DNA of 64,000 bases from a virus (IMGVR_UViG_3300034072_000647), one strand, 5' to 3'. Positions 15,317 through 63,614 are shown, numbered from the stretch's first letter. The notes: generated from the sequence alone by a model not told the origin. Program-made: numbers and translations.

Positions 15317-15324
15317 ATAATAGA

Positions 15325-15395: not shown

Positions 15396-15398
15396 ACA

Positions 15399-15644
15399 TT
15401 AGCCTTCAGACTTTTCGTAGGTCGCTCGATCTACGCAGATCATGCGATTCAACTTCTTGTCTTTAATTAGAAAAGGCTTATCACTATTACAGTTTGGTTC
15501 ACTGTTATACACAGTTTTATGATATTCACTATCTAGTATTACTGCATTAGGCCCTGCGGTAACAATTACGCGCGGGTCTGCATTGGCGGGACTGCCAGCA
15601 GCCAACCCTAGTAAAAACAGTCCTGTGAGTAACTTATTAAACAT
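15399..15644 (-). CDS. Small secreted protein (signal peptide)
   Basis: Starts MFNKLLTGLFLLGLAAGSPANA. Confidence 0.5.
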   Translation of the reverse strand: MFNKLLTGLFLLGLAAGSPANADPRVIVTAGPNAVILDSEYHKTVYNSEPNCNSDKPFLIKDKKLNRMICVDRATYEKSEG

Positions 15645-15659
15645 ATGATAATCCTTATA

Positions 15660-15730
15660 TGGAGCCGACATTGGGGTTCGAGCCCAACTAAACGACGTAC
15701 GAAGCCGTTGTCCTCGCCAGAGGTGTCGGC
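15660..15730 (-). tRNA. tRNA-Thr(CGT)
   Basis: Perfect acceptor GCCGACA/TGTCGGC. Anticodon ACGGC-TTCGTAC-GTCGT. T-arm TTGGGCTCGAACCCCAA. CCA end. Confidence 0.55.
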
Positions 15731-15736
15731 ATGAAA

Positions 15737-15829
15737 TGGAGGAAGGCTGGTGGTGTCGATCCCCAACCGTATCGCTACGAGTCCACTAGTTTTCAAGACT
15801 AGGCCTGGGGCCGCCCAGGATAACCTTCC
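15737..15829 (-). tRNA. tRNA-Ser(TGA)-like, long variable arm
   Basis: Acceptor GGAAGGT/GCCTTCC and a CCA end. Perfect anticodon hairpin CTAGT-CTTGAAA-ACTAG. Atypical T-arm with an ATCGACA loop. Confidence 0.5.
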
Positions 15830-15830
15830 G

Positions 15831-16034
15831 TTAAGCTGTAATTGCGATGACCTTATCGCGAACGCGGGCAGCGCGCTCAATCTCGCTAGCGCGGGCATCT
15901 ACACCAGCACTGAGCTTGACAATGGTTTCTTGGTCTTTCACGTTCTTGGCATTCTCAGCGTCGATATAAGTTTCGAGATCACGCTGAACCTTGCTGAAGG
16001 CTCCAAGAATATTATCAAGACTACGATTGAACAT
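15831..16034 (-). CDS. Small coiled-coil protein
   Basis: Started at an internal Met. Confidence 0.45.
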   Translation of the reverse strand: MFNRSLDNILGAFSKVQRDLETYIDAENAKNVKDQETIVKLSAGVDARASEIERAARVRDKVIAITA

Positions 16035-16060
16035 TAACTTACCTTTCCGTTGTTGAAAAA

Positions 16061-16137
16061 TGGATCCCCGCGTAGGACTCGAACCCACACTCACTAGGGC
16101 CAAAACCTAGCCGCCTTACCCGATAGCGCAACGGGGA
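16061..16137 (-). tRNA. tRNA-Gln(TTG)
   Basis: Anticodon CTAGG-TTTTGGC-CCTAG. T-arm GTGGGTTCGAGTCCTAC. CCA end. Confidence 0.65.
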
Positions 16138-16143
16138 ATGGTG

Positions 16144-16320
16144 TTAGCGACTTACGAAAGCACTAACACCTGCGATGCTCACCCCGAAAACGAGGAAAAT
16201 CAACGCTAGAATTAGGAATAGAATAATAGGCCAGAAGATGAGCAACAGCCAACTGGTGGCAATGACGCCTACGATCTTGAGAATAATCAAAACAAGCCAA
16301 ATAACGCCAACAATACTCAT
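16144..16320 (-). CDS. Small hydrophobic membrane protein (58 aa)
   Basis: Unlisted ORF MSIVGVIWLVLIIL... Confidence 0.4.
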   Translation of the reverse strand: MSIVGVIWLVLIILKIVGVIATSWLLLIFWPIILFLILALIFLVFGVSIAGVSAFVSR

Positions 16321-16338
16321 ATTTATCCCCCTATAAAC

Positions 16339-16413
16339 TGGTACTCACGCAGGGACTCGAACCCCGATAGGCCGCTAATCAGGCGGCAGCCTTAGCCATT
16401 AGACGACGTGAGC
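16339..16413 (-). tRNA. tRNA-Ile(GAT)-like second copy
   Basis: Acceptor GCTCACG/CGTGAGT. Anticodon GCCGC-CTGATTA-GCGGC. T-arm CGGGGTTCGAGTCCCTG. CCA end. Confidence 0.55.
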
Positions 16414-16766
16414 ATGTGTGCATTCGCACGAAACTAGCCGGTTTGAAGTACATGCACCGGAAACTTAACCATCCGCGGGCGATAACTCCCGTTCCATATT
16501 TATACAGCCAAGGAGGTACTTTGGCTGTTGAGGCCGTCCGGAGACGGTTCCACCATCTGGGCCGTGTGTCGCTCCCAGAATAGATCAAATATTTTACAAG
16601 CACGATCATCCTATGCTTGGGGCCGGTAGGGTGGAGCGCACCCTGGCTTTTGCTAGACGTATTGCAAAGTACGATCTCTTCACTCATCAGGTAACGACCC
16701 ATGTTAGTTACTTTACCAAGCCCGTACTTGGTGTGTGGGGAAGCTGTTCCCACCTTCTAGCAAAAC

Positions 16767-16843
16767 TGGTACACGACATAGGATTCGAACCTATCATTTC
16801 CCACTTGTAAGGAGGGCGATTTCACCAAGCTATCTCGTCGTGC
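16767..16843 (-). tRNA. tRNA-Val(TAC)
   Basis: Acceptor GCACGAC/GTCGTGT. Anticodon loop CTTACAA. T-arm ATAGGTTCGAATCCTAT. CCA end. Confidence 0.6.
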
Positions 16844-16962
16844 ATGAAACTATGTAATAGCGGCGTTGATTTAACAACCCTTGGGAGGCTAATCCCGTTA
16901 TCGCCGTTTCCGCTCTTGATGACTCATTATATCTAAATTAGCAAGTAAAGTCAAGAACTATT

Positions 16963-27901: not shown

Positions 27902-28429
27902 AGAGTATCTCCTAAATTCTGTGGCCCGTTGGGTAACAAGGTGGGCCAGACCCCGGTCACTTATGCGGCGAGACGAATCTCGTCGAAAGCGACAACGTCA
28001 TTGTCGTTTGCGTTTACTTTTTGTGGCCAGTTTAAGTTTAGCCAGACTATAGCCTAACGTGCTTTTTTCACGCCGAATCGATCTCAGTTCTGCCCCATCA
28101 ATATTCTAGTAAAACTTCTAAGCTACACTGACCCATGCCAACGTCCTTAGACCATAGGAATCTCTCGTTTTGCAATCGAGCGCTTTGTTTTTCTGTTACC
28201 GCAGAATGGTCATTCGTCTTGTCGGGAGAGTAGTGCCTCGGTAAAAGCAGGGAGTCCCTATACTAGAATAATGGTGGAGCAGGTGGGAGTCAAACCCACG
28301 TCTTCAGCTGCTATTAAGTCGCTTCAAGCGGCTATTTAGTTAGATAAGTATAATGTTACCACGCAGGGTAGAGAACAATATACTTATCAATCTCGTTATG
28401 TCTCAATATACTAAATTTGAGCCGTCAAG

Positions 28430-33921: not shown

Positions 33922-34801
33922 AAAATCTCCTATTGATGACTCATTATACGCCAACTAAACATGTGAGTCAACACGTAACTTTGGAAGTGCTTGAAATGCG
34001 GTGGTCGGCGCACAGCAAAATGGGCAGCAACCCGAAAGTTGCTGCCCATGCCCCGGCAAATTCGTATTACGGGTTGATCCGGCCTGAACTTCTGCGCTTC
34101 AGGTCTTTAGGTGGGTTAATTACTCCGCTTGTTACCTCCTCAGATATTTCCCGCGAGGACGGGCCGGTTCTCCGGTATAAGGCAGTTTTAACTTCTGCCA
34201 AAGTAGACACATTTTGAGGACCAAGGAGACTTATGACGTAATCTCAGCTATCTCAAGGCTGCACCATGCCTAAACTGAACGTGAGGTCGCTCACCACCTG
34301 CTCCTCACCAACCGCATAGCCGGCCTTGACCCGCGGTTCCCGTCTAATTGTCGTCTGCGGCCGCGAACCGGACCACAAAATCCTACTAAGCCGCTAAGCC
34401 TAGATTTACCGTTAGTCTCTTACATGAACTTGTTCGGCAATCCTTAATGGTACGTGAAGTGTCTCGACCACGCACATCCGCTTTGTTCTACACAACAAAG
34501 ACCGTCTCTCTTTAGGCTAGAGCCGCCTATCAGGGTTAACTACCCCAATATGAATCAGGAGTTGAGGTCGTCTTCGATTACACCGCGTACGTCGGAAACC
34601 TCTTTCATCGTCGGGTCGTTGATCTCCTGAACTGTTAAACCGAGCCGGAGGTTAGTCCGGGGAATTCTTTGACTGGTCACAGGCAATTTTTCCTAGGATG
34701 CCAGCAATCGCAGTAGTAACAAGTTTGCTCCACGATTTAGCCCAGCTTGTAGCGGAGATCAACCCGCGTCTGGATTAAGGAGCCTCTATCTTACTTTCCA
34801 C

Positions 34802-34871: not shown

Positions 34872-35083
34872 TATCTACAAACCTTTTACTCTCCTAACAT
34901 CACTTCTAGACAGAAAGGCCTTCCCGTTCTAGGTTACTGATAGTCAAGCGATAGTCGCACCAAAATCATATTATATAGAGTCAGGCTGGTCAGCATTGCC
35001 AGCGAAATACTCTAATTCTCGGAGCTGTTCGAGGAGTCGTTTTTAACGCCCGGTTAAACTACTGAATCTATATAATATGCGCG

Positions 35084-35152
35084 TTTGCAGGCTGGGACTC
35101 GAACCCAGACTCCCGATCATAGGCCGGGGTGCTGCCGTTACACTACCTGCGT
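35084..35152 (-). tRNA. tRNA-like element (anticodon hairpin CCCGG-CCTATGA-TCGGG; no CCA)
   Basis: T-arm CTGGGTTCGAGTCCCAG and a D-arm-like GTG..CAC. Confidence 0.3.
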
Positions 35153-35484
35153 CCCTCGCGAAGGGTTGACCGAGCATTTAAGCGCTACTACTCGATCGAA
35201 CAGATACAGACGCTTAGCGACTGTGCTGCATGTACGGGTTCTTCGCAAGAGTCCCGTTCTCTTGACAGATTGCGTTTAACGTGCCATCTGCAAACCACAT
35301 TGCTAGCTTAACGGGGACTCGAACCCTCTTACTTAACGTAACCAACCCTGGCAGCTAGACTTCCTCATTCTATATCCGAGAGGCACAGACCCTGGGTTTC
35401 ATCCCATTAATATCAGTCTTCGGGAGAGTTAATTACCACTCACAACTAAGCAACACCAAATGTTAAGTGCCTGTTGCCACACTT

Positions 35485-35557
35485 TTCTTGATGTAGGAAT
35501 CCAACCTACCTTTATTCCGGTTTAAATCCGGATTGACTCGCAGAATCATAATCAAGA
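35485..35557 (-). tRNA. tRNA-like element with anticodon loop ATTTAAA (UUA, ochre-suppressor-like); T-loop TTGGATT
   Basis: Perfect hairpin TCCGG-ATTTAAA-CCGGA. Acceptor TCTTGAT/ATCAAGA. D-stem GATT/AATC. The T-loop deviates (G56). Confidence 0.3.
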
Positions 35558-50896: not shown

Positions 50897-51124
50897 GTTA
50901 TCATATTAGCACTTAACAATTAGTGGGTCAACTACTATTTTCAGAAAAACAGACTATTATAACTTGAAAATATACCCATTCCCCCTCGTTTTAGTCTGGT
51001 TATATTATTCGACTAAGCGCTTGTGCTAGATAGTTACGACCCTGGGAAAAATAATTCTTGACTTTTGGCAAAAGTCATGATACTATAGTAACGTAGTTAC
51101 AGATTGGTAGTATGCAAAAATTGA

Positions 51125-51262
51125 TTTATCAGACTGCGGAGGATGTCCCTAATTACATTAGGTAAGGTACTTTGAAGAGAAGGAAGAGGCCTCTGGACGG
51201 AGGGAATTCTCGGGTACCTTAACTGAATGTCTATTAGGGACATATCCTCCGCAGGTAATTTA
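51125..51262. repeat. Large imperfect inverted repeat (about 40-bp arms, about 50-bp spacer)
   Basis: CTGCGGAGGATGTCCCTAATTACATTAGGTAAGGTAC ... GGTACCTTAACTGAATGTCTATTAGGGACATATCCTCCGCAG. Confidence 0.6.
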
Positions 51263-52104
51263 ATCTTACCAAAGCGGTAAGATCATTTTACAATAAGTCA
51301 AAGGTCCTCATCGTATTGCGTCTTCACTACGTGAAGACCAATGCAACGTGCTAAAGTGATTTAATTCACTATGGAATACTAAGGCAACTTGATGGGTTGC
51401 ATACCAATTTTCATCTATTTCATAAAATTGGAACGAACTCCGCTACCGGCCGCCCCACCTCCTAGCTTCGTGAACATGCTCTAGCTTATTATGACCTTTA
51501 AAGGGTTGTAGCAGGCTTTTATTTTGTCCTAAGCATACGCACTTCATTCCCATCACCCTAGATTGAGTAAATACTGTAGTGTGCGTTGGTCTGCTACACC
51601 CGTTGAAAGGCCCGTAGTCGGTTGCAACCTGCCACAGGTCCGCAGCAAATTTTTCTGAATCCGCTCGAATTTGCACTAAATTCGGCGCAACTTTTCCCGC
51701 AAACCACCCGTTGCATCCCGTTATCATCGAGCAAAGTGGCAGAAAATAAAAATATGTGGTTAAATCAGCACTTTGTCAAATAAATCTTGACTTTACGCAA
51801 AATAAGGCTTATAATCGTGGCGTTTACCGAATATGGTAGATTTTGCACTGATATTGAATTTGCACTGCCGCCGGCGCAGGTGAGTTTCGGCGCTAGAGAA
51901 ATTTTGGTCGAAATCTGTCTTTGGCACGAAGATGCCTAGCTGGGTAGCTTTAGCACTGGTCGAATTAGCACTTTATTGGCCACACGTAAAAATAGTTGTT
52001 GAACTACTACTGCCGCCGGCGCAATAGCAGCGCTATTGCGAATCATTAGCAATAAAAAATCCTTTGTTTTCAATGACTTAGCTGGAACCGACCGGCCGCC
52101 AAAT

Positions 52105-52190
52105 GTTACGTTATATCATATCCCTATGTGATGATATATCATATCCTGATGTTACGTTATATCATATCGTCATGTTATAACATATCCTAG
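52105..52190. repeat. Four direct repeats of TTATATCATATCC-like 13-mers at about 21-bp spacing
   Basis: ttatatcatatcc / atatatcatatcc / ttatatcatatcg / ttataacatatcc. Confidence 0.55.
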
Positions 52191-52259
52191 CCGGTCTCAG
52201 GGGGCACGATTATAGCAGCGTTCGCGGTCGTGTCAAGCCCAAGAAAAATAAATTTTTGC

Positions 52260-52320
52260 TTGACGCGGGCTTGCTAGTCTGCCAAAATCGGCGCAAGTTA
52301 TTGAGAATGATTCTCAGTAG
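52260..52320 (+). promoter_or_regulatory. Promoter-hairpin unit: TTGACG-N17-CAAAAT-CGGCGCAA plus palindrome TTGAGAATGATTCTCA
   Basis: Plus-strand sigma70 consensus with a GC-rich discriminator. No downstream plus-strand ORF. Confidence 0.5.
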
Positions 52321-52354
52321 AGGACAAAAGAAAAGGGCCTTGCGGCCCAAGTCT

Positions 52355-52600
52355 TTATTCGTTCTCCACCTCGACCCGTCCGATTAGGTCCGCGTTCCTA
52401 TAGTAAAACATTTTTTCGGTTCCGTCAACGTGCATTTGATGGACCCAGAAAATATCCTGCCGCCCCCCTTCCCAGCCGCAGCGAAGGGATGCCACCACCT
52501 TGCCGCAAGGGCCACGCCCTAGCTTAAATTCAGCAACGGTAAAAATATTGCCGCCGCCATTGTCATAGCGCGCTGGAACGCGAATTTTAACAATCGCCAT
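52355..52600 (-). CDS. Hypothetical protein (81 aa), GC-rich module
   Basis: ORF followed by the GGGCCGCAAGGCCC+T-run terminator at 52322-52350. Confidence 0.5.
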   Translation of the reverse strand: MAIVKIRVPARYDNGGGNIFTVAEFKLGRGPCGKVVASLRCGWEGGRQDIFWVHQMHVDGTEKMFYYRNADLIGRVEVENE

Positions 52601-52736
52601 TTTCCAATTCCCTAATTTCGCGCAAGAGCCTTATGCGCTCATTATCCTTAGCAGGGGTGAAAGGCTCGCGCAAGCATTTTTCCATTTTCTTGCGCAGTTT
52701 TTTCATCTTCGCATAATAGGTAGCGTTGCGTTCCAT
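52587..52736 (-). CDS. Hypothetical basic small protein (49 aa)
   Basis: Unlisted ORF MERNATYYAKMKK... that overlaps the start of the next gene. Confidence 0.35.
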   Translation of the reverse strand: MERNATYYAKMKKLRKKMEKCLREPFTPAKDNERIRLLREIRELENGDC

Positions 52737-52738
52737 AG

Positions 52739-52909
52739 CTAATCCTCCAGCCATGTTTTGCCGCTATTAAGGTCGCGACATTCCACCACCTTAACGCTAT
52801 TTCCAGCGTTAATCAAGTCATTAAATATCTTTTTTGCTTCCAGTTTGTCGGAGCCGCTCCAGTAGTCAAACCAGTCGAGGCCGTGAAGCGTGAAAATCTC
52901 ATAATACAT
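52739..52909 (-). CDS. Hypothetical protein
   Basis: Started at MYYEIF after an AAAGGA SD. Minus-strand TTGACA promoters lie upstream. Confidence 0.45.
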   Translation of the reverse strand: MYYEIFTLHGLDWFDYWSGSDKLEAKKIFNDLINAGNSVKVVECRDLNSGKTWLED

Positions 52910-53074
52910 ATTCAATCCTTTCCAGTGCCAGCTTAGGCGGAACAAACGCCCATGTCAACATGTAATTTATGAGAACAAACCGTGACCAAATTTTCGGCGC
53001 TCCCTATGGATAAACATAACGCCGTTTTGGCGGTCTGTCAAGCGAAAAATTTGCTTTTTTGCATAATTTTTCGG

Positions 53075-53105
53075 TTGACAGGTATGTCTATAAAAATGCT
53101 ATAAT
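53075..53105 (+). promoter_or_regulatory. Plus-strand promoter TTGACA ... TATAAT (19-bp spacer) divergent from minus-strand TTGACA promoters
   Basis: Drives a roughly 90-nt ORF-free transcript that ends at the 53161-53195 terminator. Confidence 0.45.
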
Positions 53106-53160
53106 CGCCCCGTTTCGGTCGCCCCATGATATGATATATCATCACATTGCTAGAACGTCA

Positions 53161-53195
53161 AAAAACCGGAGATGGCCATCTCCGGTTTTTCTATC
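53161..53195. terminator. Bidirectional intrinsic terminator
   Basis: AAAAACCGGAGATggccATCTCCGGTTTTT. Confidence 0.7.
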
Positions 53196-53522
53196 TAGCC
53201 GTATCGGTTGACTAGCAAAACGCCGTTTTAACTATTCAGCAGACGATACTGTTATAGGGTGACAATTCCGGTTTAATGAGAATTACGGAAAGCCCCTTGC
53301 TAAGTCTGACCTATCTCCATTTCAACCAAACCTAACTAATGATCGCTTTTCGTTTGTCACGCTTCCCGTTCGCCCCGTCTTTAATTGCTATTTTTCAAGC
53401 CGCGAGTGAAAGGGGAAATGGAAGCTATGACAAATCAGGCTAATCGAATCCAAACCTTATGCGATGATTATAGACGTTTTGGGCGGGCCGGTCAAGAATT
53501 ATTTTGACCGGCCCTAATCCCG

Positions 53523-53930
53523 TTAGTCGTCCGTGCCGGTCTTTTCCAGCGAAACGCGGCTGGCCGCTGCCTCAACATAGGCGGCGATAGCGACCAGTGC
53601 GGCCTTTGGCGACTTTTCCAGACCGTCCAGATTGCCCGTCACGATAGCGCCGATGCGTTCGACAAGGTCGGTTTTCTTGACGATGGGGCTGCCGTCCTTG
53701 GAGGTCGGTTCCTTGCCCGCGTAGGGCAGGCCCATCCGGCCAATCTTGGCGACCAGCGAACGATAGGAACGTTCCTTGCCGTCGCTATCGCGCATGTCGG
53801 GGCGTTCCGCCAGCGCCTTGGCGATTTCCAGATTGCCCTTTCCGTTGGGGCCGGCTTCGCAAGCCGCACGAATGATTGCTTCCTGAGCGGCGGTATAGTT
53901 GGTCGGCTTGGCGTTTGCGGTGTTGTCCAT
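53523..53930 (-). CDS. Hypothetical protein (135 aa)
   Basis: Started at MDNTANAK after an AAAGGA SD. Confidence 0.5.
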   Translation of the reverse strand: MDNTANAKPTNYTAAQEAIIRAACEAGPNGKGNLEIAKALAERPDMRDSDGKERSYRSLVAKIGRMGLPYAGKEPTSKDGSPIVKKTDLVERIGAIVTGNLDGLEKSPKAALVAIAAYVEAAASRVSLEKTGTDD

Positions 53931-54058
53931 TTTTAAGAGTCCTTTTGACTTTAGTGTTTCTCTATCAAGCTGCCTCATCGCCTCTTGATGTAATCCTTAT
54001 ATATCGGGCGAAGCATCCCGTCAACAAAAATCGACAAAAAATCTGAAAATCTTTTCTC

Positions 54059-54116
54059 TTGACATGGGCTGAAAAACCTGCTAAAATTTCGGCGCAAAAT
54101 CGGGATCGATTTTTGG
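54059..54116 (+). promoter_or_regulatory. Promoter-hairpin unit: TTGACA-N17-TAAAAT-ttCGGCGCAAAATCGggatCGATTTT
   Basis: Same module family. Confidence 0.5.
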
Positions 54117-54170
54117 CGGCACGATGATAAAGCAATCGCGAGAATTTGTCAAGCCCCTAAAATAAATAAA

Positions 54171-54200
54171 AGAAAAGGGGCTTTTCAGCCCCTTTTCCCT
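54171..54200. terminator. Bidirectional intrinsic terminator downstream of the A1-like gene
   Basis: AAAAGGGGCttttcAGCCCCTTTTC. Confidence 0.7.
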
Positions 54201-54205
54201 TGACA

Positions 54206-55870
54206 TTAGGCAAAAATGATTTGCCGCTGCCCGTTGGCATATGTGATAGTATCCGCGATTGCCCATGACGATGCGCCGATATTATATCCCATTTCCAGCG
54301 ATGCCGTTACGCCAGCCGTAAAGCAAGGATAGAAAATGCTAGGGCTGTGTGTGTGCCCGGTGTTCATCGGAACGCCAAGCGCCGCAAATTGTTTTGGCGA
54401 CCCGCGCGACCCGTTGACACCATTGTGCCCATGATTGCCCATTTCGACACCGGCGATAACTAGGCTTTCATCGGTTTCATGAAAATTGATTTGATCCGAA
54501 TAACCGCCTTCGCCAATTTCTTCATATGCATATTGCAGCATATTGAAATAATCGCCGTTTCCTTCCTCTTTATGGCGGTAAAGCGCCGTCATGCAATCCA
54601 GATAGACAAGTGCGTTTATCGGATCAATCTTAAAGTCAGCATTTTTCAGCCAAGTATTTATGGCCAAATCGTGGTTGCTTTCCACAATGTGAATCTGCCC
54701 GTCATGGCGGAAAGTCGTTTCCGCAATGGCGTCCAGAACGTCGGCCAGCTTTTGCAGGTCGCCGCGCACCGTATTGCCCTTGACGAATTGTTCATGCAGG
54801 AAAGTCGGATCCTTGATATTATGATGGTTCCGGCTGGAAAAATCCAAAACGTCATGCAGGATCACATTTGACGGCTTGAAATTCAGGATCATTTCGCAAG
54901 CGCGATCGAGATTGGCTTGCTCCATCTTTTCCGCATGAATGTCACCGAATTGCAAAGCCGCAACGTCGCCACGCGACAAGGGAACGAAAGCCGATGCGGA
55001 ATAGAAACCGTCCACATCATAGAAGCCGCTTTCGCCGTCCAGCTTGTGCAAATGCCGCATTTCGTTCGTGACAGTATCGACAAACACCGCGCCGATGCAA
55101 TGCGCCGCGCTTGCCTTAGCGCCGCGACCGCGAACGATATAGTTACGCTTGGTAACTGCGCCAGTGCCGACGATGGTTTTCGTTTTCGCGCCCTTCAGTG
55201 CCGCGCCTACGCGAAGCTCAATTTTGGACGTTGGCACGATAGCATGAACGCCGGGAGGCGTATTGCCATCGAATCCTTGCGTCGGCCATTGTGCCGTCAC
55301 GATGACATTTGCGTCGGCCAGAAAATGCGCGCCGTGCAAGTCGATTGTGCCGCGAACAATATAGCGCTTGATCGCCGGATCAAACCAGATATTTGCCTCG
55401 GGATCACCGCTGCCCATATCGTCAAGCGACACTTGACGAAACGCCTTTTTATTATAGACCGTCTGCGCGACCAGAATTTTCGCGCCGTGCATTTCCGCGT
55501 AGCGTTCCAGTGCCGCGAGAAAATCGCGGTCAACATCAGTGTTATTCTGCGCGACGGTCAGGATATAGCGGCCAGCCGGGAAAGCGTCAATATGGTCGCC
55601 AGCTTCCTGAGAAGCCGAAACCGGCATGGCTTCCAGCTTCGCCAGCTTCGCGGCGTCACGCGCCAGCTTCGCGGCTTCGCGCTTGCGCTTGGCGTCTGCC
55701 TTTTCCGCCTGATAGTTGACCAGCATCTGCCAATCATCGTCGGTAGGATCGCGATCAAATTCCGCCGCGAAGTCACCCGACAAGTCATCCCATGCCTTGC
55801 GCTGATTTTCCGGCGTTTTCTTGCGAAATACGCCAGCCGCGCTTGCAAATGCGATGATTTCTGTATTCAT
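54206..55870 (-). CDS. Large metallophosphoesterase, T5 A1-like (554 aa)
   Basis: Motifs GDIHA, HDVLDF, SNHD, GNHGHNG and GHTHSP are present. The start was placed at MNTEIIAF after an AAAGGAG SD. Size and context match the T5 pre-early protein A1 (by inference). Confidence 0.75.
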   Translation of the reverse strand: MNTEIIAFASAAGVFRKKTPENQRKAWDDLSGDFAAEFDRDPTDDDWQMLVNYQAEKADAKRKREAAKLARDAAKLAKLEAMPVSASQEAGDHIDAFPAGRYILTVAQNNTDVDRDFLAALERYAEMHGAKILVAQTVYNKKAFRQVSLDDMGSGDPEANIWFDPAIKRYIVRGTIDLHGAHFLADANVIVTAQWPTQGFDGNTPPGVHAIVPTSKIELRVGAALKGAKTKTIVGTGAVTKRNYIVRGRGAKASAAHCIGAVFVDTVTNEMRHLHKLDGESGFYDVDGFYSASAFVPLSRGDVAALQFGDIHAEKMEQANLDRACEMILNFKPSNVILHDVLDFSSRNHHNIKDPTFLHEQFVKGNTVRGDLQKLADVLDAIAETTFRHDGQIHIVESNHDLAINTWLKNADFKIDPINALVYLDCMTALYRHKEEGNGDYFNMLQYAYEEIGEGGYSDQINFHETDESLVIAGVEMGNHGHNGVNGSRGSPKQFAALGVPMNTGHTHSPSIFYPCFTAGVTASLEMGYNIGASSWAIADTITYANGQRQIIFA

Positions 55871-56002
55871 TTCATAGGCTCCTTTGCCACTAAGAATTTG
55901 CAAGTCCGTTTCCCGTCCTTGCCCTCCCCTTATACAGACGCCAGCGGATAACACAATAGGGAAAATTCGATTAGTGCGATTTTATTTAGAAAATTTTTTC
56001 GC

Positions 56003-56080
56003 TTGACAAGTCGCGGCGAACCTGCCAAAATCGGCGCAAAATTAAGGCTCTTGAGAATCATTCTCAAGAGCCTCATTTTT
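56003..56080 (+). promoter_or_regulatory. Promoter-hairpin-T-tract unit: TTGACA-N17-CAAAAT-CGGCGCAAAA plus GGCTCTTGAGAATCATTCTCAAGAGCC plus TCATTTTT
   Basis: Perfect 27-bp palindrome followed by a T-run. Genes on both sides are on the minus strand. Confidence 0.55.
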
Positions 56081-56084
56081 AGCT

Positions 56085-56255
56085 TAGCGGCGTTTTGACC
56101 GGCAAGTCATTGTCAAGCGCAAATTTCAGCCGCCCCAACGGCCCTAGCGCCTTTTCCGCGTTGGGTGGAACGTCCATATTTGACTTTAGCAACGTCCAGT
56201 AAATGAAAACGCAAAGCAATATGCCAAAAATAGACAGGATAGTTTCAGTCCACAT
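56085..56255 (-). CDS. Small membrane protein (56 aa)
   Basis: Unlisted ORF MWTETILSIFGILLCVFIYW... ATGTGGACTGA overlap with the upstream ORF. Confidence 0.4.
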
Positions 56256-56421
56256 TTGCTAAATCCTCCAACGCGATCATATCGCGCATTTGCAGTTGCA
56301 TTTCGCGCCAAAAAGCGCGGCGATACTCTAACGGCCGGTCGCGAATTTTCGTTACCATTTCCGCGAGGAATGAAGCTAAAGCGCCTTGCGCCCTAGCTTC
56401 ACCCTTTTCCGTTTCGTTCAT
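56245..56421 (-). CDS. Hypothetical small protein (58 aa)
   Basis: Unlisted ORF MNETEKGEARAQ... ATGA overlap with the stop of the HAD gene. Confidence 0.4.
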   Translation of the reverse strand: MNETEKGEARAQGALASFLAEMVTKIRDRPLEYRRAFWREMQLQMRDMIALEDLANVD

Positions 56422-56930
56422 GCGGCCAGCCGCAGGCGGGCATTTTCCCGCGTCGCGTCAATCATCATGACATCATCAGCCAGTGCCCGAATGACGCCTA
56501 GATTGTCATCGAACATGATCGCGCCCATTTCGCGGATAGTGTCGAAACCTTGCGAAAACGCATAGTCTGACAGTAGCTTGATTTTCAGCGCGCCGTCGCC
56601 CATCGTTTCGTGATCCGGGCCAGCCATCAGCCGATGCAGGCAAGCATGATGATGCAAACCATTATCGGCCAAGAATTGCGTATAAATTGCGCCCAAGTCA
56701 ACGCCATTCAGCGGCGAAAAATCACGCGCCGTGCAAATGACGATTGTATGACCGGCGGCAAACATAGTCCGCATGGAAGCCGCCAGCGGCAAGAGCGTAT
56801 CGCGAGCGATCATTTCCGGCGTGCTATTAGCAAACCAAAAATCGAGGTCGCAATGGCCATCTGCATTGTTACGGTAGCGATGCGACGTGTCGATGACAGT
56901 GCCATCCAAGTCAAAAATCACATAAGCCAT
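56418..56930 (-). CDS. HAD-superfamily phosphatase, T5 Dmp (5'-deoxyribonucleotidase)-like
   Basis: Contains HAD motif I (FDLDGTV). Its position next to the A1-like gene matches the T5 layout. Confidence 0.65.
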   Translation of the reverse strand: MAYVIFDLDGTVIDTSHRYRNNADGHCDLDFWFANSTPEMIARDTLLPLAASMRTMFAAGHTIVICTARDFSPLNGVDLGAIYTQFLADNGLHHHACLHRLMAGPDHETMGDGALKIKLLSDYAFSQGFDTIREMGAIMFDDNLGVIRALADDVMMIDATRENARLRLAA

Positions 56931-57047
56931 TTTGGTTTCCTTTTTTAAGCGATGTTTCCCTATCGCTGAAATTGTTATGCCTTAACCCAGCGATGATTGC
57001 AAGCCTAAAAATACGATTAAAAAGATTTATTTATTGAAAATTTTCGC

Positions 57048-57125
57048 TTGACAAATGCCTGCGCCGGCCCTAAAATCGGCGCAAATTGGGGTTATTGAGA
57101 ATCAATCTCAATAACCCCTTTGCTT
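57048..57125 (+). promoter_or_regulatory. Promoter-hairpin-T-tract unit: TTGACA-N17-TAAAAT-CGGCGCAAATT plus GGGGTTATTGAGAATCAATCTCAATAACCCC plus TTTGCTT
   Basis: Same module family. The hairpin core TTGAGAAT..ATTCTCAA is shared with the units at 52260 and 56003. Confidence 0.55.
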
Positions 57126-57387
57126 ATGTCGGAAATACAATCAAAGCCAGCAAAATGGATTGCAAGAAAATTCCGACGCTTTCCGAAACAATGTAAAGCA
57201 TCTGGCGATTGTATATGGAGCGCAGCAGGAACAAAAAGAGTCCAGCCCAGACCATAAGGACCATTGAAAGCGGCGGCAATTCATGGGACCAGCCCATAAT
57301 CACGCCGACCAGACTAGGGATTGCCGCGCCTTGAATAAGGCAAATTCCGACATATCCGCCAGCCTCAAATGCCTTTGCTTTGCTCAT
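57124..57387 (-). CDS. Small membrane protein (3 TM)
   Basis: ORF. Confidence 0.5.
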   Translation of the reverse strand: MSKAKAFEAGGYVGICLIQGAAIPSLVGVIMGWSHELPPLSMVLMVWAGLFLFLLRSIYNRQMLYIVSESVGIFLQSILLALIVFPT

Positions 57388-57494
57388 TATTCTGTCTCCA
57401 GACCGAAAGCTGAATTTTATATTGCCATTCCTTCCTTATCTTAGCAGCGGCCTTGCCGCTGTCAAGCGTTCCGATGAAAGGTGGATCGAATTTT

Positions 57495-57746
57495 CTAGTT
57501 GACGACATGCAAGTCAATCCCTTTAAGCCGCTTGACGCGAAGCAAGAGCGACTGAATTTCGGGAATGTCTGCGCCATACATGACGATTTCATCTTCCAGC
57601 AATTCATGCAAATAATCGACTTCGCTTTCCGTTAGCGTCAAGGTGAAAGTCGGAGGAACGTCGCCGTTATCATATCCGGCGGCCAGACGTTCCAGTTGAA
57701 TTAGGGCTTGTGTTACCATTTTTTCGGCCTTCCCTTTGCTTTCCAA
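57495..57746 (-). CDS. Hypothetical protein (83 aa)
   Basis: ORF. Confidence 0.45.
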   Translation of the reverse strand: MESKGKAEKMVTQALIQLERLAAGYDNGDVPPTFTLTLTESEVDYLHELLEDEIVMYGADIPEIQSLLLRVKRLKGIDLHVVN

Positions 57747-58458
57747 TATCCGTCGCTATATCCGCGCTTATATTCACTAGACCATTCCCGCGAGCCTGTC
57801 AAGTCGCCATTGATAAAGGCGGCCTTGCCGTCGCGAAGACCGGCGATGTATTGTGCAGCTTGCTTGTTCGTTTTCATGCCCCGATTATATCAAATTCGCC
57901 AACCCATGCAACAGAAAAAACGTGTCAAGTAAAAATAAAAATCTTTGCTCTTGACACATTTTTCGCTTGACGCCACCTTCACGCTAGTATATATGTAATG
58001 TATGGCTGGGAAATCGGCCAAAATTTTCGGCGCAAAATGGGGTCGTCATCCCATTATAGCAAGTCTGCATATGGCAGTCAAATAAAAAATGAGGCCGAAG
58101 CCTCATTCTTTGAGTTTTCTTTCTATGTCATATGGGTTGGCATAACCACAATAGCGAAGGCTCTTGAATGTCCTCTCCTCCGCCCTTGTCATCTTGCGAC
58201 CGAGAAGGCTTTCCACCTCTTTGCGAATGTTGATAATCATATCAGCGCGCCCCCTTCCAATCTGCCCGCATCTTGACACCGGCCGTGCCGCGCCATGCCG
58301 GAATACGGTCGATCATTTCCTGCCCACCCTTGCGGGTCGCGGCAGTTGCGAGAAGCGCGTTGCTCTTGATATCAACGATAACGAAGGGCGATGCATTCAT
58401 GTCCGTGTCTCCTCAGTTGGTAGGGCCATCTTAGCAGCCCTACCAATCGAGTCAACAT

Positions 58459-58722
58459 TTATTTTTCCATCGCCTCAAATTCTTCCGCGAAGGAATTGCC
58501 ACCAACGCGCAGCATGTCGTGCTTATAGGGATCGTATTCCTCGACCCAATAATCCGGCCCCTCGTCCTCGAGCCCACTTTCCTCCTCGGGCGCTTCCCAG
58601 CGTTCCCACGCATAGCAGTGGGCGTCGGTTTCCGCAGCCTCTAGGCTGTCATATATGCCCAGCGCATCGCAATAGTCCGTGCCGACATAGGGCGCCCAAT
58701 TACCCTGAATGATAACGCGCAT
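58459..58722 (-). CDS. Acidic hypothetical protein (87 aa)
   Basis: ORF with a TAATG overlap to the upstream ORF. Confidence 0.5.
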   Translation of the reverse strand: MRVIIQGNWAPYVGTDYCDALGIYDSLEAAETDAHCYAWERWEAPEEESGLEDEGPDYWVEEYDPYKHDMLRVGGNSFAEEFEAMEK

Positions 58723-58895
58723 TACAATTCTCCATTAAGGAACAATTCGACGGTTTCGCTGGCGACTTCCTCCGGCGAATCCCCCTGCTCATACATATCC
58801 CAATACATCTGATCGGGCAAGTCATCGGTGGTCAAGCAGCTAAGCTGTTCCGCGACAAGATTGTCCACCTTTGCCTTCCAAGCCTCGAACGACAT
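58722..58895 (-). CDS. Hypothetical acidic small protein (57 aa)
   Basis: Unlisted ORF MSFEAWKAKVDN... after an AGGAGA SD. Confidence 0.45.
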   Translation of the reverse strand: MSFEAWKAKVDNLVAEQLSCLTTDDLPDQMYWDMYEQGDSPEEVASETVELFLNGEL

Positions 58896-58963
58896 TGCCT
58901 TATCTCCTGAAATTGAGCCTTATAATAAAACGAAAAAAGCACCTTGTCAACAAATCTTTTCAG

Positions 58964-59036
58964 TTGACATTGAATTGAATCTGTGCTAAAATCGGCGCCA
59001 ATTTGAGCGCATTGAAAATGCGCTCATTGAATATTG
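58964..59036 (+). promoter_or_regulatory. Promoter-hairpin unit: TTGACA-N17-TAAAAT-CGGCGCCAATT plus TGAGCGCATTgaaaAATGCGCTCA
   Basis: Same module family. Confidence 0.5.
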
Positions 59037-59050
59037 ACTTATAACTTAGA

Positions 59051-59191
59051 TCAATTTTCGTCCTGTTCCCGGTCTGTTCTCGTTCCGTTCCCGTTCCGTT
59101 CCGCCAGCGCCGCCTGCCCGGATATGAAATACCATATCACCGCTCCGTATACGATTGCGATGACACCGATGGATGCGATAACGTCCGACAT
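59051..59191 (-). CDS. Small membrane protein with NG-rich repeat tail (46 aa)
   Basis: Unlisted ORF MSDVIASIGVIAIVYGAVIWYF...ERNGNGTRT. It overlaps a GTTCC tandem repeat. Confidence 0.35.
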   Translation of the reverse strand: MSDVIASIGVIAIVYGAVIWYFISGQAALAERNGNGTRTDREQDEN

Positions 59192-59295
59192 GCTGCTAAG
59201 TCCTTGATATTGCTGGATTTCGGCGCCTCCTGCGAGGCGTTCTCATTTAGCCTAAAGCTAATGCTATCCCGCCGCGAGGCGGGATAGTGAGAGCC

Positions 59296-59481
59296 TTAGT
59301 CTTCAAAGACTTCGCAATGTTCTATCATGCGATTGTCGTTAGCTTCGCTAACGAAGTCGATTGCCTCCTCCTTCGTCATGCAGCCATTTTCCCACGACAC
59401 ATAGACTTCCTCGGGAAGCATGAAGGTAGCGACGCCCCAATCGTCATGCGCCCAGATGATGTTGGTTACGATGAAATTCAT
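59296..59481 (-). CDS. Hypothetical protein (61 aa)
   Basis: Started at MNFIVTN. Confidence 0.4.
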   Translation of the reverse strand: MNFIVTNIIWAHDDWGVATFMLPEEVYVSWENGCMTKEEAIDFVSEANDNRMIEHCEVFED

Positions 59482-59494
59482 AGTCAGGGTTCCT

Positions 59495-59755
59495 TTACAG
59501 ATAGACGATAACGGCATAGCGCTCGGGATCATCTATAACGTCAATGCGAAGATCCGCTATTTCCGCCTTTAGCTGTTCATAGCTGCGCGTTAGAACATGG
59601 TTACGTATCGCTTCCCATGCATCCACACCTTCCAGCGAGAGCAAGGGCGTTTCAGTATCGCCATTAACGATAGTGAAGTAGCAGGCCAGGCAGGCGGGCA
59701 GCTCGTTGGTCATGGCTTCGTTTCCTTCGTTGTCAACACCTCCGATTATACACAT
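59495..59755 (-). CDS. Hypothetical protein (86 aa)
   Basis: ORF. Confidence 0.4.
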   Translation of the reverse strand: MCIIGGVDNEGNEAMTNELPACLACYFTIVNGDTETPLLSLEGVDAWEAIRNHVLTRSYEQLKAEIADLRIDVIDDPERYAVIVYL

Positions 59756-59832
59756 ATTTTGCCCCTTGTGTGAAAAAAGAATCGTGTGTTTTCAATGGCT
59801 TATAAGATTTTTCTGGACCAAGTATAGATTCA

Positions 59833-59935
59833 AGTATCTGCCAAGTAATACATTGCTATTGACAAGTATTGCCTAAATTAAGCGAAGTAAAAGAAATCGC
59901 TTGACAAGTATAGGGGCGGTTACGAGACAAGTAAA
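59833..59935. repeat. Four copies of (T)GACAAGTA(T/A) upstream of the Myb/T5orf172 gene
   Basis: ctgccaagtaat, attgacaagtattg, cttgacaagtatag, gagacaagtaaaaa. Confidence 0.45.
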
Positions 59936-60003
59936 AATACCCATTCCCAGGTCCCACCCACATGCGGTAAATTGGATTTTTCTGATTTCAAAAAAGGGTG
60001 CTG

Positions 60004-60909
60004 TTAAATCAAATCCTCGATACAATTACATTCAGATATGAAACATTCCGTATTGCCATTGGGCAACCCCGGATTTACCCTACTTTCCCTCAATTTCCAC
60101 AAAATTTCCCGCTCTGTTTCAATTGCCTCATCTAAATCTGGAAACTTCACGAAGTCTAATAACTTATACGCTGGGAACCCCCTAAAACGACTTTCTGTGT
60201 CTCTCTGAGTTATACCTATTTTTTTAAATTTACCAAAATCTACTAAATATAAATAAGTTTCTTTATTCTTCTTAAGAACACTATGATTTATATCTAATCC
60301 GGCTAACTCCAAGGCTTTTACCCAACTACCAAAACGCCCCACGACCGCCATAGAGCTAGGTTCTTCATCCTCTCGGAAGTAATCTAATCTTTCTTTGACT
60401 ACATATTTTCTAACCAAATCCAGCAGATACTCATCTGTATATTCTTTCTTAACTCCCAAACCTCTAGTACGTACCACGTTAGTTATAGCAGCTTCACTAC
60501 GCCCTAGAACCTCTGCAATGTACTTGTACTGATGACCCTTCTCTATTAGTTCTTTGACTTTACTAATATCAGCCTCGATCCAAGAACCTTCTCTATGCTT
60601 TTTACCTCTACGAACCTTTTCGAGCCCCTCCAGCTTAGACAATCTTCTAGATATAGAAGCCTCCGTACGGCCCAATTGTTTAGCTATAGCTTTATAAGTT
60701 TCTTTCGATTCATATAACTCTATAAGTAATTCATCCTCATAGTCTTTCCAGGATTCTCTAATTACGTTAGATTCTAGTACCCCGTATTGTATTAATTTAG
60801 ATATTCTACATTGTATCGCCTTTGTAGTTCTTCCCTCTATTTCCGGAAATTCATCCCTCTCTCTGGCGTTAATTATAATTTGATCTTCTTCTTTTGTCCA
60901 TCGTTTCAT
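60004..60909 (-). CDS. Myb/SANT-like repeat protein with C-terminal T5orf172 (GIY-YIG superfamily) domain
   Basis: The N-terminal half has three W..EED..I / HTH-like repeats. The C-terminal region LYLVDFGKFKKIGITQRDTESRF has a GIY...YIG...R arrangement like the T5orf172 domain. The AT content is atypical, which suggests a homing-endonuclease-like mobile gene. Confidence 0.65.
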   Translation of the reverse strand: MKRWTKEEDQIIINARERDEFPEIEGRTTKAIQCRISKLIQYGVLESNVIRESWKDYEDELLIELYESKETYKAIAKQLGRTEASISRRLSKLEGLEKVRRGKKHREGSWIEADISKVKELIEKGHQYKYIAEVLGRSEAAITNVVRTRGLGVKKEYTDEYLLDLVRKYVVKERLDYFREDEEPSSMAVVGRFGSWVKALELAGLDINHSVLKKNKETYLYLVDFGKFKKIGITQRDTESRFRGFPAYKLLDFVKFPDLDEAIETEREILWKLRESRVNPGLPNGNTECFISECNCIEDLI

Positions 60910-61024: not shown

Positions 61025-61453
61025 ATGACCGCACTAACCATTTCACCGGAGGGGCTAGAAGTTGCAAACGCATACCTACAATATGGTGATGTTAAAACTG
61101 TAGCTTATGAATTGGAAATACCACAGCATGAGGTCGTAAGACAACTACAACTGACTCATGTTAAAAAATACCTAGATGGAGTCTATTTAGACTTAGGCTA
61201 CCGTAATAGAACTAAACTAGCTTCTGTTCTGGATAAAGTGATCGATGCCAAGCTAGAAGAAGCTGAAGAGACAGGCATATACTCAAGTAAAGACTTGATA
61301 GATATATTACAACTAGCTCATAAGCTTCGCATGGACGAAATAAAGTTACAAAAAGAAGAGAAAACTATTGACTCCCAGACCAACATTCAGGTCAACCAAT
61401 ACGGAGACTCTAGTTACGGGAAGCTTATGGAAAGGCTTCTGGAGAAAAAGTAA
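61025..61453 (+). CDS. Putative terminase small subunit (DNA-binding, HTH N-terminus)
   Basis: Position immediately upstream of the large terminase. Helical, with an HTH-like N terminus. Assigned by position only. Confidence 0.45.
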   Translation: MTALTISPEGLEVANAYLQYGDVKTVAYELEIPQHEVVRQLQLTHVKKYLDGVYLDLGYRNRTKLASVLDKVIDAKLEEAEETGIYSSKDLIDILQLAHKLRMDEIKLQKEEKTIDSQTNIQVNQYGDSSYGKLMERLLEKK

Positions 61454-61872: not shown

Positions 61873-62203
61873 TACATCGGCGGTAGCACCTGCCGTAGTA
61901 GCTGTTCAGCCCGCGTCGGTCGTCGTCCCTAGCACATATCTCGCCGCCTCGGATCGCAGAAAGGGCTTCGCCCTATTTTTCCTAGCCGGCGGTGGTGCAA
62001 TGATGACAATCTACGCATCTATAGTTCTGTATCTAGTTCAGGAGTATCCGCGCTACGCATACTATCTCGGACTATTTGCAATGTTAAACATATTTATGAT
62101 ATTCACCGGCCTGGTAGGCATGTTCGTTAAGAGATCGATCAATGTTACTAGAAATGGTGTAATTATTGAGGATCAAAATGGCAGTCAAGATCAGCAGAGC
62201 TGA
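61838..62203 (+). CDS. Small membrane protein
   Basis: ORF with 2 TM helices. The start may be the internal MMTIYAS. Confidence 0.4.
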   Translation: MTTVTTTETATNTSAVAPAVVAVQPASVVVPSTYLAASDRRKGFALFFLAGGGAMMTIYASIVLYLVQEYPRYAYYLGLFAMLNIFMIFTGLVGMFVKRSINVTRNGVIIEDQNGSQDQQS

Positions 62204-63614
62204 CGTAGTAGACACACATATTGTTGAAGACTTGCCGGGGCGTTTTCTCAAGGTACCGATTTCACGGTACCTTGAGACCCTGGCCGAGGGTCGTTATCAG
62301 GGATTTGAGGAGGCGTTGCCTTCTCAGATGGCTTTGATTAATGCGATAAATAAGTATCGCTTTGTTGTTGCGGCATTGTCTCGACGACAGGGGAAGACGT
62401 TTATTGCGAATATCATTGGGCAGTGCGTGACACTGGTTCCTGGTTCGAACGTGTTGATTATGTCACCGAATTACCAGCTGAGCTCGATTTCGTGGGACGA
62501 GCAGCATAAGCTGTTGAAGTTTCATGATATTGAGACGGAGCGCGATAATGCTAAGGACCGAGTGGTTGAGCTGTCGAACGGATCTACGATCCGTATGGGT
62601 TCGATCAATCAGGTTGACTCTAGCGTTGGACGTAGCTACGATTTGATTATTTTCGACGAGGCGGCACTGACTGACGGAATGGAGGCATTCTCGCAGGCTT
62701 TGAGACCTACGTTGGATAAACCGAATTCGAAGGCTATCTTTATTTCGACGCCTCGTGGTAAGTCGAACTGGTTTAGCGTGCTTTATAACCGCGGTTACGA
62801 CATTGGTGAAGATGGCCAGATGCAGAAGTTTCCTGACTGGTGTTCGATTCACGCAACCTGGGCCGATAATCCTAGAATGACTGAGGATGACGTCGCTGAG
62901 GCACGTCGTACAATGTCTAAGGCTCTATTTGAGCAGGAATATGAGGCATCGTTCAACAACTACGAAGGTCAGATTTGGAACTTAACGGACGACTGTATAG
63001 TTGAGGAAGGAGAGACGCATGAAGTATTTCTTGAAGACGATCGCGGGAATCCTGTTACAGCTCCAGACGGCTCGTTTGTTAGCGAGATCAGGCTCAAGCA
63101 TCCCTATCTTCGCGGCAACGATCGCCATAAGTTGGATATCGTCGCGGGTCTAGACCTTGGTTTCAAGGATCCAACGGCAATGTGTGTCATTGGATATGAT
63201 TATGCGGCTGATATTTACTACGTTCTAGACGAGTATTTTGACAACGAGAAGACCACTTCGGGTCACGCGCAGGAAATAGAGCGCTTGATCAAAAAGTGGG
63301 AAATTGACTACGTATTTATCGACTCGGCAGCGCAACAGACTAAGTTCGACCTTGCTAAAGATTACGACATTCCGACAATTAACGCGACTAAATCCGTTAA
63401 TGACGGTATCGGTTTCGTAGCTTCCCTAGTTGATAATAAGAAAGTAATTGTACCAAAGCACTGTCGTGAGGTACTGAGAGCATTTGACGCTTATAAGTGG
63501 GATCCTAATCCTAACCTCGTCAAGGAGAAGCCGAAGCACGATATTGCATCTCACATGGCTGACGCTATTAGATATGCTCTGTACAGCTTCGAATCCTCTG
63601 TAGGAAAGATGTAA
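62178..63614 (+). CDS. Terminase large subunit
   Basis: Walker A-like SRRQGKTF, Walker B LIIFDEAAL, and a C-terminal nuclease-like region. About 480 aa. Confidence 0.9.
   Translation: MAVKISRADVVDTHIVEDLPGRFLKVPISRYLETLAEGRYQGFEEALPSQMALINAINKYRFVVAALSRRQGKTFIANIIGQCVTLVPGSNVLIMSPNYQLSSISWDEQHKLLKFHDIETERDNAKDRVVELSNGSTIRMGSINQVDSSVGRSYDLIIFDEAALTDGMEAFSQALRPTLDKPNSKAIFISTPRGKSNWFSVLYNRGYDIGEDGQMQKFPDWCSIHATWADNPRMTEDDVAEARRTMSKALFEQEYEASFNNYEGQIWNLTDDCIVEEGETHEVFLEDDRGNPVTAPDGSFVSEIRLKHPYLRGNDRHKLDIVAGLDLGFKDPTAMCVIGYDYAADIYYVLDEYFDNEKTTSGHAQEIERLIKKWEIDYVFIDSAAQQTKFDLAKDYDIPTINATKSVNDGIGFVASLVDNKKVIVPKHCREVLRAFDAYKWDPNPNLVKEKPKHDIASHMADAIRYALYSFESSVGKM

Follow-up and report, generated by a model that had tools for sequence, protein, structure and literature searches.

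The A1 and dmp genes lie inside the annotated terminal repeat in bacteriophage T5, Vibrio phage phi 3, Slocum, SIA3lw, and Kenya-K20, and the repeats of annotated relatives span 7.8-12.5 kb. For a T5-type phage, a terminal repeat of this kind is expected to merge into a single copy in assembly. In phi 3 (NC_028895, repeat 1-7769), dmp, A1, and A2 all lie within the repeat, and an untranslated region comes after them. In T5 (NC_005859, left repeat 1-10219), the A1 protein was reported to be the driver of host DNA degradation (bioRxiv 10.64898/2026.04.02.716235). Here, we analyzed a 64,000-nucleotide (nt) stretch of viral DNA, IMGVR_UViG_3300034072_000647 (hereafter, the window), in which a GC-richer block between about 50,970 and 59,965 carries homologues of A1 and dmp. 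This block can be considered to be the pre-early (host-takeover) module of a divergent T5-like phage, most probably in the form of a long direct terminal repeat that was collapsed in assembly.

The block shares with the T5 left repeat the A1 and dmp homologues, many tiny open reading frames (ORFs) including membrane types, strong host-type promoters, large untranslated regions rich in repeats and palindromes, and palindromes of the TGAGAATNATTCTCA type. Both also have a conserved end element (GTCTnnTAACCGCC) beside the first genes, measure about 9 kb, lie a few kb from terS and terL when the map is collapsed, and have a GC content at third codon positions (GC3) above that of the late genes. 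The source of the window is an uncultured, divergent T5-like phage, with TerL, TerS, nickase, and portal proteins of T5-like character and a large tRNA array. Its closest cultured relatives are the T5-like phages of Vibrio and Aeromonas, as judged from TerL (47% identical to that of the Vibrio phages) and from full-length comparison of Dmp (about 33%).

The 554-amino-acid (aa) protein of the block was 40% identical to T5 A1 (556 aa) in an alignment of 473 aa (pairwise E=4e-96). Its match to phrog_1745 ('DNA transfer protein'), which is the A1 family, had an E-value of 8e-145 and spanned positions 39-532 of the 542 in the profile; phrog_221 (metallo-phosphoesterase) was matched weakly. All the calcineurin-type metallophosphoesterase motifs (GDIH, HDVLDF corresponding to HDVxDF, SNHD, GNHGHNG, and GHTH) were found in register with T5 A1. 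Exactly this protein is present on at least 14 metagenome contigs, one of which is 115,207 bp long, and a tblastn search with it retrieved homologues in 1,134 phage records, Demerecviridae foremost; a PDB sequence search gave no match. The highest identity in the phage collection (60%, to the C-terminal 58 residues) was to a fragment in a 2.5-kb record of Listeria phage LM 4-14-1 (OR849099.1), which probably comes from a related phage and was wrongly attributed.

The dmp homologue lies 548 bp from the A1 homologue and encodes 170 aa, compared with 244 aa in T5. It was 39% identical to the N-terminal 70 aa of T5 Dmp (pairwise E=4e-11) and 31-34% identical over 95-97% of its length to annotated deoxynucleoside-5'-monophosphatases (dNMPases) of the Vibrio and Aeromonas T5-like phages, several of whose genes sit in annotated terminal repeats. 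A precomputed Pfam match assigned it to PF26880 (Phage_T5_dNMPase), and the HAD motifs were located at residues 6-12 (FDLDGTV) and near residue 140 (MFDDN). An earlier note on this DNA had likened the two proteins to T5 A1 and, 0.5 kb away, T5 Dmp; both were found to be true homologues.

The left physical ends of T5, SIA3lw, phi 3, and Slocum have a common element (TTAGTCTnnTAACCGCCnCCC) that follows a G-rich run and lies 28-54 nt from the end. A pattern derived solely from the physical left ends of T5, phi 3, and Slocum (GTCTNNTWACCSCC) matched the 64 kb once, at 59915-59928 on the minus strand (0.00 expected from 100 shuffles), which is exactly the terminase-side border of the module. When a profile of the four reference termini was applied to both strands of the window, the best match was 59950-59913 (minus strand, E=0.057), and the next best had an E-value of 1.3. 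In the fetched loci of T5, phi 3, Slocum, and SIA3lw, the pattern occurred at the repeat ends only; the remaining matches were the same site on other contigs of this phage. By register with T5, phi 3, and Slocum, the physical end would lie at about 59,956-59,968, which coincides with the GC step and is just short of the stop of the adjacent 301-aa gene (60004).

The same element was found in two of three uncultured relatives, IMGVR_UViG_3300037882_002350 (L001), 3300046321_000130 (L002), and 3300037460_000197 (L003). About 250 nt beyond terS, L003 carries ACGTGAGGGTGGGT, which is identical in 14 of 14 nt to the start of the phi 3 record, followed by AAGTCTCGAAACCGCCCCC; at the equivalent place beyond terS, L002 carries TACCGCATGCGGGTGGG ... 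CACTTGTGTCATAACCCCC, and the window reads TACCGCATGTGGGTGGG ... TACTTGTCTCGTAACCGCCCC. Box B of the phi 3 element also recurs in the window. As the block starts at a sequence matching a T5-type left end, it is probably a terminal repeat collapsed in assembly. The suggestion of the earlier note that the region might be a collapsed terminal repeat or genome end was thus supported by an end element that occurs once, at the module border, and again in L002 and L003. Directly inside the putative left end, seven (C)AAGTA motifs (59820-59935, plus strand) lie within 30-nt direct repeats (59840-59869 and 59882-59911); these may be protein-binding iterons, e.g., for packaging or regulation.

The position of the block in the genome was also that of a T5 repeat. 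In the T5 map, terL is followed by terS, oad, llp, four small genes, and the right terminal repeat, which opens with dmp 3.1 kb beyond terS, and the neighborhood is the same here. The module ends about 2.2 kb from terL (62166) and about 1.1 kb from terS (61025), with the 301-aa gene intervening; the earlier distance of about 2 kb to the terminase genes was only partly right. On contigs of up to 115 kb, the module was present in a single copy between the terminase genes on one side and the early genes and the transfer RNA (tRNA) array on the other, and it therefore looks like a collapsed repeat. The contig ends themselves were dropped on principle as markers of the repeat borders, as a collapsed repeat leaves an unbranched assembly graph and makes them uninformative; they were also scattered.

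The repeat would probably extend from about 59,965 to about 50,970, and its length of about 9 kb falls within the range of the annotated relatives. Below about 50,970, the GC content drops to 33%. The 12-mer ATACCCATTCCC occurs only twice in the window, next to this drop (50972-50983) and within the terminus element (59937-59948), and it may mark the inner border of the repeat. A shared 12-mer was reached in 2 of 300 shuffles of the two intergenic zones (p about 0.007). A shared motif as a general marker of both repeat borders was rejected, since T5 and L001 have none and that of L002 is weak.

The GC content of the window is 45.5% overall. The interval 51000-59800 has a GC content of 48.6% compared with 45.1% in the remaining window, and it exceeds all other 8.8-kb windows, lying about 2.5 standard deviations over their mean; its core (53520-56930) reaches 52.1%. 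The GC3 of the module genes is 0.46-0.69 (at least 0.50 in all except one), while it is 0.26-0.40 in the four genes directly below the module and 0.32 in the gene directly above. Thus, the compositional step is genuine yet modest: the 8.8-kb GC-richer block described previously was retained, whereas the description of the rest of the window as AT-rich was not. A similar rise was observed in T5 (GC3 of 0.43-0.45 in A1 and A2 vs 0.26-0.35 in late genes), phi 3 (44.9% GC in the repeat vs 40.9% adjoining), and L001 (43-46% GC in the module vs 32-41% in its surroundings), and it can therefore be considered a trait of the module, not the sign of a recent import or a host junction. It is plausible that the higher GC and GC3 suit genes that would need translation before the phage tRNA genes, which lie tens of kb away from the putative end, become available.

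The module comprises 20 genes, all on the minus strand (ORF calls, confirmed on identical metagenome contigs), and its parts are the A1 homologue, the Dmp homologue, seventeen small ORFs, and two untranslated repeat-rich regions. Six small proteins have a pI of 4.1-4.3 and three have a hydrophobic membrane segment, and neighboring genes overlap at their starts and stops by 1, 4, 7, 11, 14, or 16 nt. A total of 42 promoter-like sites were found in the module, compared with 17.8 +/- 4.1 in shuffles, and direct and inverted repeats were plentiful. Both the overlapping chains of tiny acidic or membrane ORFs and the density of repeats, palindromes, and promoters noted earlier were borne out by these counts. 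At the nucleotide level, the module was not similar to any deposited phage (no megablast match among 50,697 phage records), and a search of Rfam at the gathering threshold and at E<=1 returned nothing in it.

The three uncultured relatives have small ORFs, dmp, A1, and a gene resembling that of the 135-aa protein (p135) of the window in the same order and on one strand. L002 and L003 also share the end element, and L001 shares the CGGCGC units described below and a conserved untranslated block. On the other side of the module, divergent terS and terL are found in L002 and L003 and tail-fiber genes in L001. The relatives differ from the window in that their A1 proteins are only 47-58% identical, their modules are shorter, and their hairpin-rich distal segments cannot be aligned. 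Phi 3 differs in retaining the T5 orientation and A2, and it has no nucleotide-level similarity to the window. The features of the block and its flanks are listed in Table 1.

Table 1. Features of the putative terminal repeat and neighboring loci in the 64,000-nt window (a slash in a motif marks the nick).
Feature	Position	Strand	Basis or remark
12-mer ATACCCATTCCC, candidate inner-border marker	50972-50983	+	Only other copy at 59937-59948, inside the terminus element
Distal untranslated region, 1.4 kb	50970-52354		Positional counterpart of T5 Repeat Region 3/iss
Bipartite nick-like site	51986-52023	+	CACGTAAA-N28-CCG/GCGCA; resembles T5 major nick sites
Outward unit	52238-52348	+	Promoter/terminator layout
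Three small overlapping ORFs	52355-52909	-	Contig gene calls
Second untranslated region	52910-53522		Inverted 23-bp repeat, perfect palindrome 53161-53190, promoters
Nick-like site	52962-53001	+	Similar to 51986-52023; inside module
p135, 135-aa helical protein	53523-53930	-	Downstream of A1; AlphaFold2 (AF2) model, pLDDT 80
Outward unit	54037-54105	+	Promoter/terminator layout
A1 homologue, metallophosphoesterase, 554 aa	54206-55870	-	T5 A1 alignment, phrog_1745
Outward unit, representative	55981-56073	+	Promoter/terminator layout
Two overlapping 58-aa ORFs between dmp and A1	56079-56421	-	One with membrane segment; contig gene calls
dmp homologue, HAD deoxynucleoside monophosphate (dNMP) phosphatase, 170 aa	56418-56930	-	PF26880, HAD motifs, T5-like dNMPases
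Outward unit	57025-57118	+	Promoter/terminator layout
Ten small pre-early-type ORFs, 45-87 aa	57124-59755	-	Read inward from the end; six acidic, two with membrane segment
Long-form copy of outward unit	57959-58042	+	nhmmer E=2e-5, independent of the profile
Nick-like site	57995-58034	+	Similar to 51986-52023; inside module
Outward unit	58940-59027	+	Promoter/terminator layout
T5-type left-terminus element	59913-59966	-	Box B GTCTCGTAACCGCC at 59915-59928; G-rich box A GTGGGTGGG at ~59951-59961
Flanking 301-aa gene, 37% GC	60004-60909	-	Outside module; Myb/HTH (helix-turn-helix) repeats, HNH_repeat, endonuclease-like C-terminal part
terS	61025-61453	+	PF26823 T5_Terminase_small
terL	62166-63614	+	Terminase_6N/6C
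Nick-like site outside module	1168-1205	+	Bipartite layout
Nick-like site outside module	33975-34012	+	Bipartite layout

Among the ten small ORFs nearest the end, one matched a PHROG (phrog_519, of unknown function), and L001 carries homologues of the 87-aa proteins. The last gene of the module (81 aa, 52355-52600, minus strand) belongs to the T3 gene 1.05 family (PF25755, E=1.5e-17), which comes from T7-like early regions. p135 has 12 homologues, which are metagenomic and unnamed, and its AF2 model gave no Foldseek match below E=0.1 in BFVD. A GcrA-like helix-turn-helix was considered for p135 and dropped, as PF07750 was matched by 1 of 13 homologues (E=0.08) and the hhalign probability to a GcrA peptide was 1%.

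No gene was called over the 1.46 kb below 52355, down to 50896 (contig gene calls). This distal region contains three copies of 25-nt repeats resembling TTGAATTTGCACTGCCGCCGGCGCA, a tandem array of 3.7 copies of a 23-bp unit (52103-52186), and a consensus promoter (52236-52209, minus strand), and its conservation with the untranslated region of L001 is patchy and colinear. The 23-bp unit recurs in inverted orientation at 53125-53147, 1 kb from the array. A 330-nt segment at 51093-51420 is hyper-structured (minimum free energy of -122 kcal/mol; z=-10.6 on the plus strand and -8.4 on the minus strand against shuffles) and had no match in Rfam; lying at the inner end of the repeat, it could form a DNA cruciform or encode a structured RNA. 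It contains an imperfect inverted repeat of some length (51105-51256) and is preceded by a TGn-extended promoter (51058-51086). Homology of this segment with the relatives was rejected, as long hairpins occur at the same relative place with sequences that do not align. In the second untranslated region, 53000-53200 folds with a z-score of about -9. Three copies of the palindrome TGAGAATNATTCTCA were found in the module, where 0.03 would be expected; it recurs in the T5 injection stop signal (iss) region and is present 7 times in the T5 repeat (0.78 expected).

Nearly every intergenic gap of the module holds an outward-facing promoter/terminator unit, unlike in T5, and every copy lies in a gap between genes of the opposite strand. 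Five plus-strand units of 60-70 nt consist of an A/T-rich tract, TTGACA, 17 nt, TGnYAAAAT, CGGCGCAAA, and a hairpin; their nhmmer E-values of 1e-15 to 4e-18 were obtained with a profile built from these same sequences. The hairpins (-14 to -22 kcal/mol, z of -3.5 to -6.7) are predicted to be strong and able to terminate transcription in both directions. As promoters, the units would fire toward the genome end and yield transcripts of only about 40 nt. The sixth copy and all the copies in L001, which has only the long form, retain the core AAAATTTTCGGCGC and the hairpin, with a promoter-like TTGACR-17-TATATR about 23 nt further upstream; the conservation of the core is therefore independent of a -10 role.

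A possible alternative, which we regard as tentative, is that the units are sites for a T5-type nicking endonuclease making strand-specific CG/GCGC nicks, instead of or besides promoters of tiny transcripts. The T5 nick consensus is R/GCGCRGG (PMC3517423), and all four annotated T5 major nick sites (9748, 22336, 39746, and 78573) were found to have YGTAAY 34-36 nt upstream of R/GCGC. In the window, GTAA occurred at -33 or -35 in 5 of the 16 CGGCGC sites on the plus strand (binomial 7e-6) and in 1 of 20 on the minus strand, and the L001 module has five such bipartite sites on the corresponding single strand. The enriched strand is the terL-coding strand, as for the T5 nicks, and a T5-type nicking endonuclease homologue (42% identical to T5.153) is encoded beside the portal gene directly beyond the window. 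The site in the distal untranslated region parallels the T5 7.9% nick inside iss, and the block with its GTAA-box half (51979-51998) is identical in 20 of 20 nt in L001. However, the five best-conserved units lack the GTAA box and match a complete sigma-70 promoter that includes an extended -10 and is preceded by an A/T-rich tract, GCGC is followed by AAA here and by RGG in T5, no such sites were found in phi 3, and the upstream T5 box is a pattern that we deduced from four sites and not a rule from the literature. For the five short units, interpretation as promoters is at least as good as the nick-site reading. In T5, the upstream box often reads GTAAYnnTCG, and a fifth site of this kind lies at about 111,480-111,521, 10-50 nt outside the left border of the right terminal repeat. 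The two nick-like sites outside the module of the window share a near-identical GAGTCAACACGTAACTTTGG-N-GGTCGGCGCACAGCAAAA with a hairpin on the strand opposite to the genes.

The homologies, end element, anatomy, and synteny of the block are established, and from them we infer a duplicated repeat, a two-step entry of the DNA, and roles for the small ORFs and untranslated regions. By homology with T5, the end at about 59,965 would enter the cell first, and virion molecules would start with CATGTGGGTGGG... and finish with the same 9 kb. The host sigma-70 RNA polymerase would transcribe the block from minus-strand promoters at 59774, 58950, 58455, 58081, 57465, and 54152. A1 would then degrade the host DNA, Dmp would dephosphorylate the released dNMPs, and the small acidic and membrane proteins would shut down host functions. 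The T5 injection-stop region would have its counterpart in the 1.4-kb distal untranslated region, where repeats, long hairpins, and a conserved nick-like site are found. An array with one nick site, strong outward promoter, and bidirectional terminator per gap, together with the conserved site of the distal untranslated region, might replace A2 and the DnaA boxes in setting the pause in entry and in insulating or shutting off pre-early expression; we consider this rather improbable, and, if true, it would be a different solution to two-step transfer.

Several observations weigh against the collapsed-repeat interpretation, and some of them would fit a T5-like early host-takeover operon in a genome without a long repeat (with a short repeat, cos, or headful packaging), in which the end-like element would be a remnant or would serve in regulation or in packaging recognition. 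No duplication is visible in the sequence, and the inner border at about 50,970 is given by the GC drop and one repeated 12-mer only, chosen after the data had been seen; the borders of the T5 repeat have no comparable shared motif. The genes read away from the end here, whereas dmp, A1, and A2 of T5 read toward it, and the order of transcription is dmp then A1 here and A2, A1, dmp in T5. As the order by distance from the end (dmp, then A1) is kept, a simple block inversion does not account for the difference; L001, L002, and L003 are arranged like the window in this respect. A2 is essential in T5, but BLASTP, PHROGs, hhalign, and fold search revealed no homologue of it here: p135 gave a BLASTP E>4 and an hhalign probability of 1.3% against T5 A2, and none of the 15 scanned module proteins matched phrog_1725, the A2 family, with four small ORFs (61, 46, 74, and 55 aa) outside the scan; as a control, T5 A2 itself matched phrog_1725 at 4e-52. 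Homologues of T5.002-017 and pairs of DnaA boxes were likewise not found. A cluster of paired DnaA boxes has been proposed as the core of the T5 injection stop signal (Davison 2020, bioRxiv 10.1101/866236); the box TTATCCACA with at most 1 mismatch occurred 18 times in the window (14.9 expected), with no cluster in the module. A1-like genes are also carried, outside any repeat, by phages outside Demerecviridae (e.g., Caulobacter, Flavobacterium, and Rhizobium phages), and A1 alone is therefore no proof of two-step transfer.

An operon in a genome without a long repeat is nevertheless unlikely in our estimate, as both terminase subunits are T5-type, the end element resembles true physical ends and recurs at the corresponding position in two relatives, and all the annotated relatives that were checked have A1 and dmp inside the repeat. 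An origin of the block as a foreign island acquired recently, or as a host/prophage junction, which would account for the abrupt GC and GC3 step at both borders next to low-GC genes and for the 12-mer direct repeat flanking the block, is highly improbable, as the same module occupies the same position in relatives with only 47-58% A1 identity, T5, phi 3, and L001 show the same GC rise, and domain and PHROG scans found no integrase or transposase; the prophage-host junction raised in the earlier note is excluded because both flanks consist of phage genes.

With the block taken as a collapsed terminal repeat, the genome end of an uncultured T5-like phage was placed from its sequence alone by a short end motif found across Demerecviridae, and this motif could help to orient and trim other metagenomic T5-like genomes. 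Conservation far outside the enterobacterial T5 phages extends to the A1/dmp block, its higher GC content, and its repeat-rich untranslated tail, but not to A2, the DnaA boxes, or the gene orientation, which bears on current models of how T5 injection stops and resumes. Within the first-step DNA, the repeated CGGCGC units are concrete candidates for nicking or for the production of small transcripts. The lineage-specific variations (orientation, absence of A2 and DnaA boxes, and outward units) are of specialist interest and overturn nothing.

Among the flanking genes, the 301-aa gene matched a D5-like regulator family (phrog_323, 8.5e-28). As L001 has a shorter homologue at this position, the gene may encode a conserved regulator and not a stray homing endonuclease. 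Two ORFs lie between terS and terL. In L002, a 486-aa HNH/homing endonuclease gene (3583-5043, plus strand; phrog_559, 6e-110), which is absent from the window, lies beside terL. The window carries at least 32 tRNA genes, at least 30 of which are arrayed at 1300-16900 (minus strand); a tRNA-Ile(tat) and a tRNA with the anticodon tta, which resembles an ochre suppressor, lie 18 kb from the array at 35083-35557 (minus strand). The early region of the phage also contains a permuted transfer-messenger RNA (tmRNA) gene (27961-28335, minus strand; RF04321, 85.6 bits, E=6e-15), which is unusual in a T5-like phage and hints at a host with a two-piece tmRNA (alpha-/betaproteobacteria or cyanobacteria).

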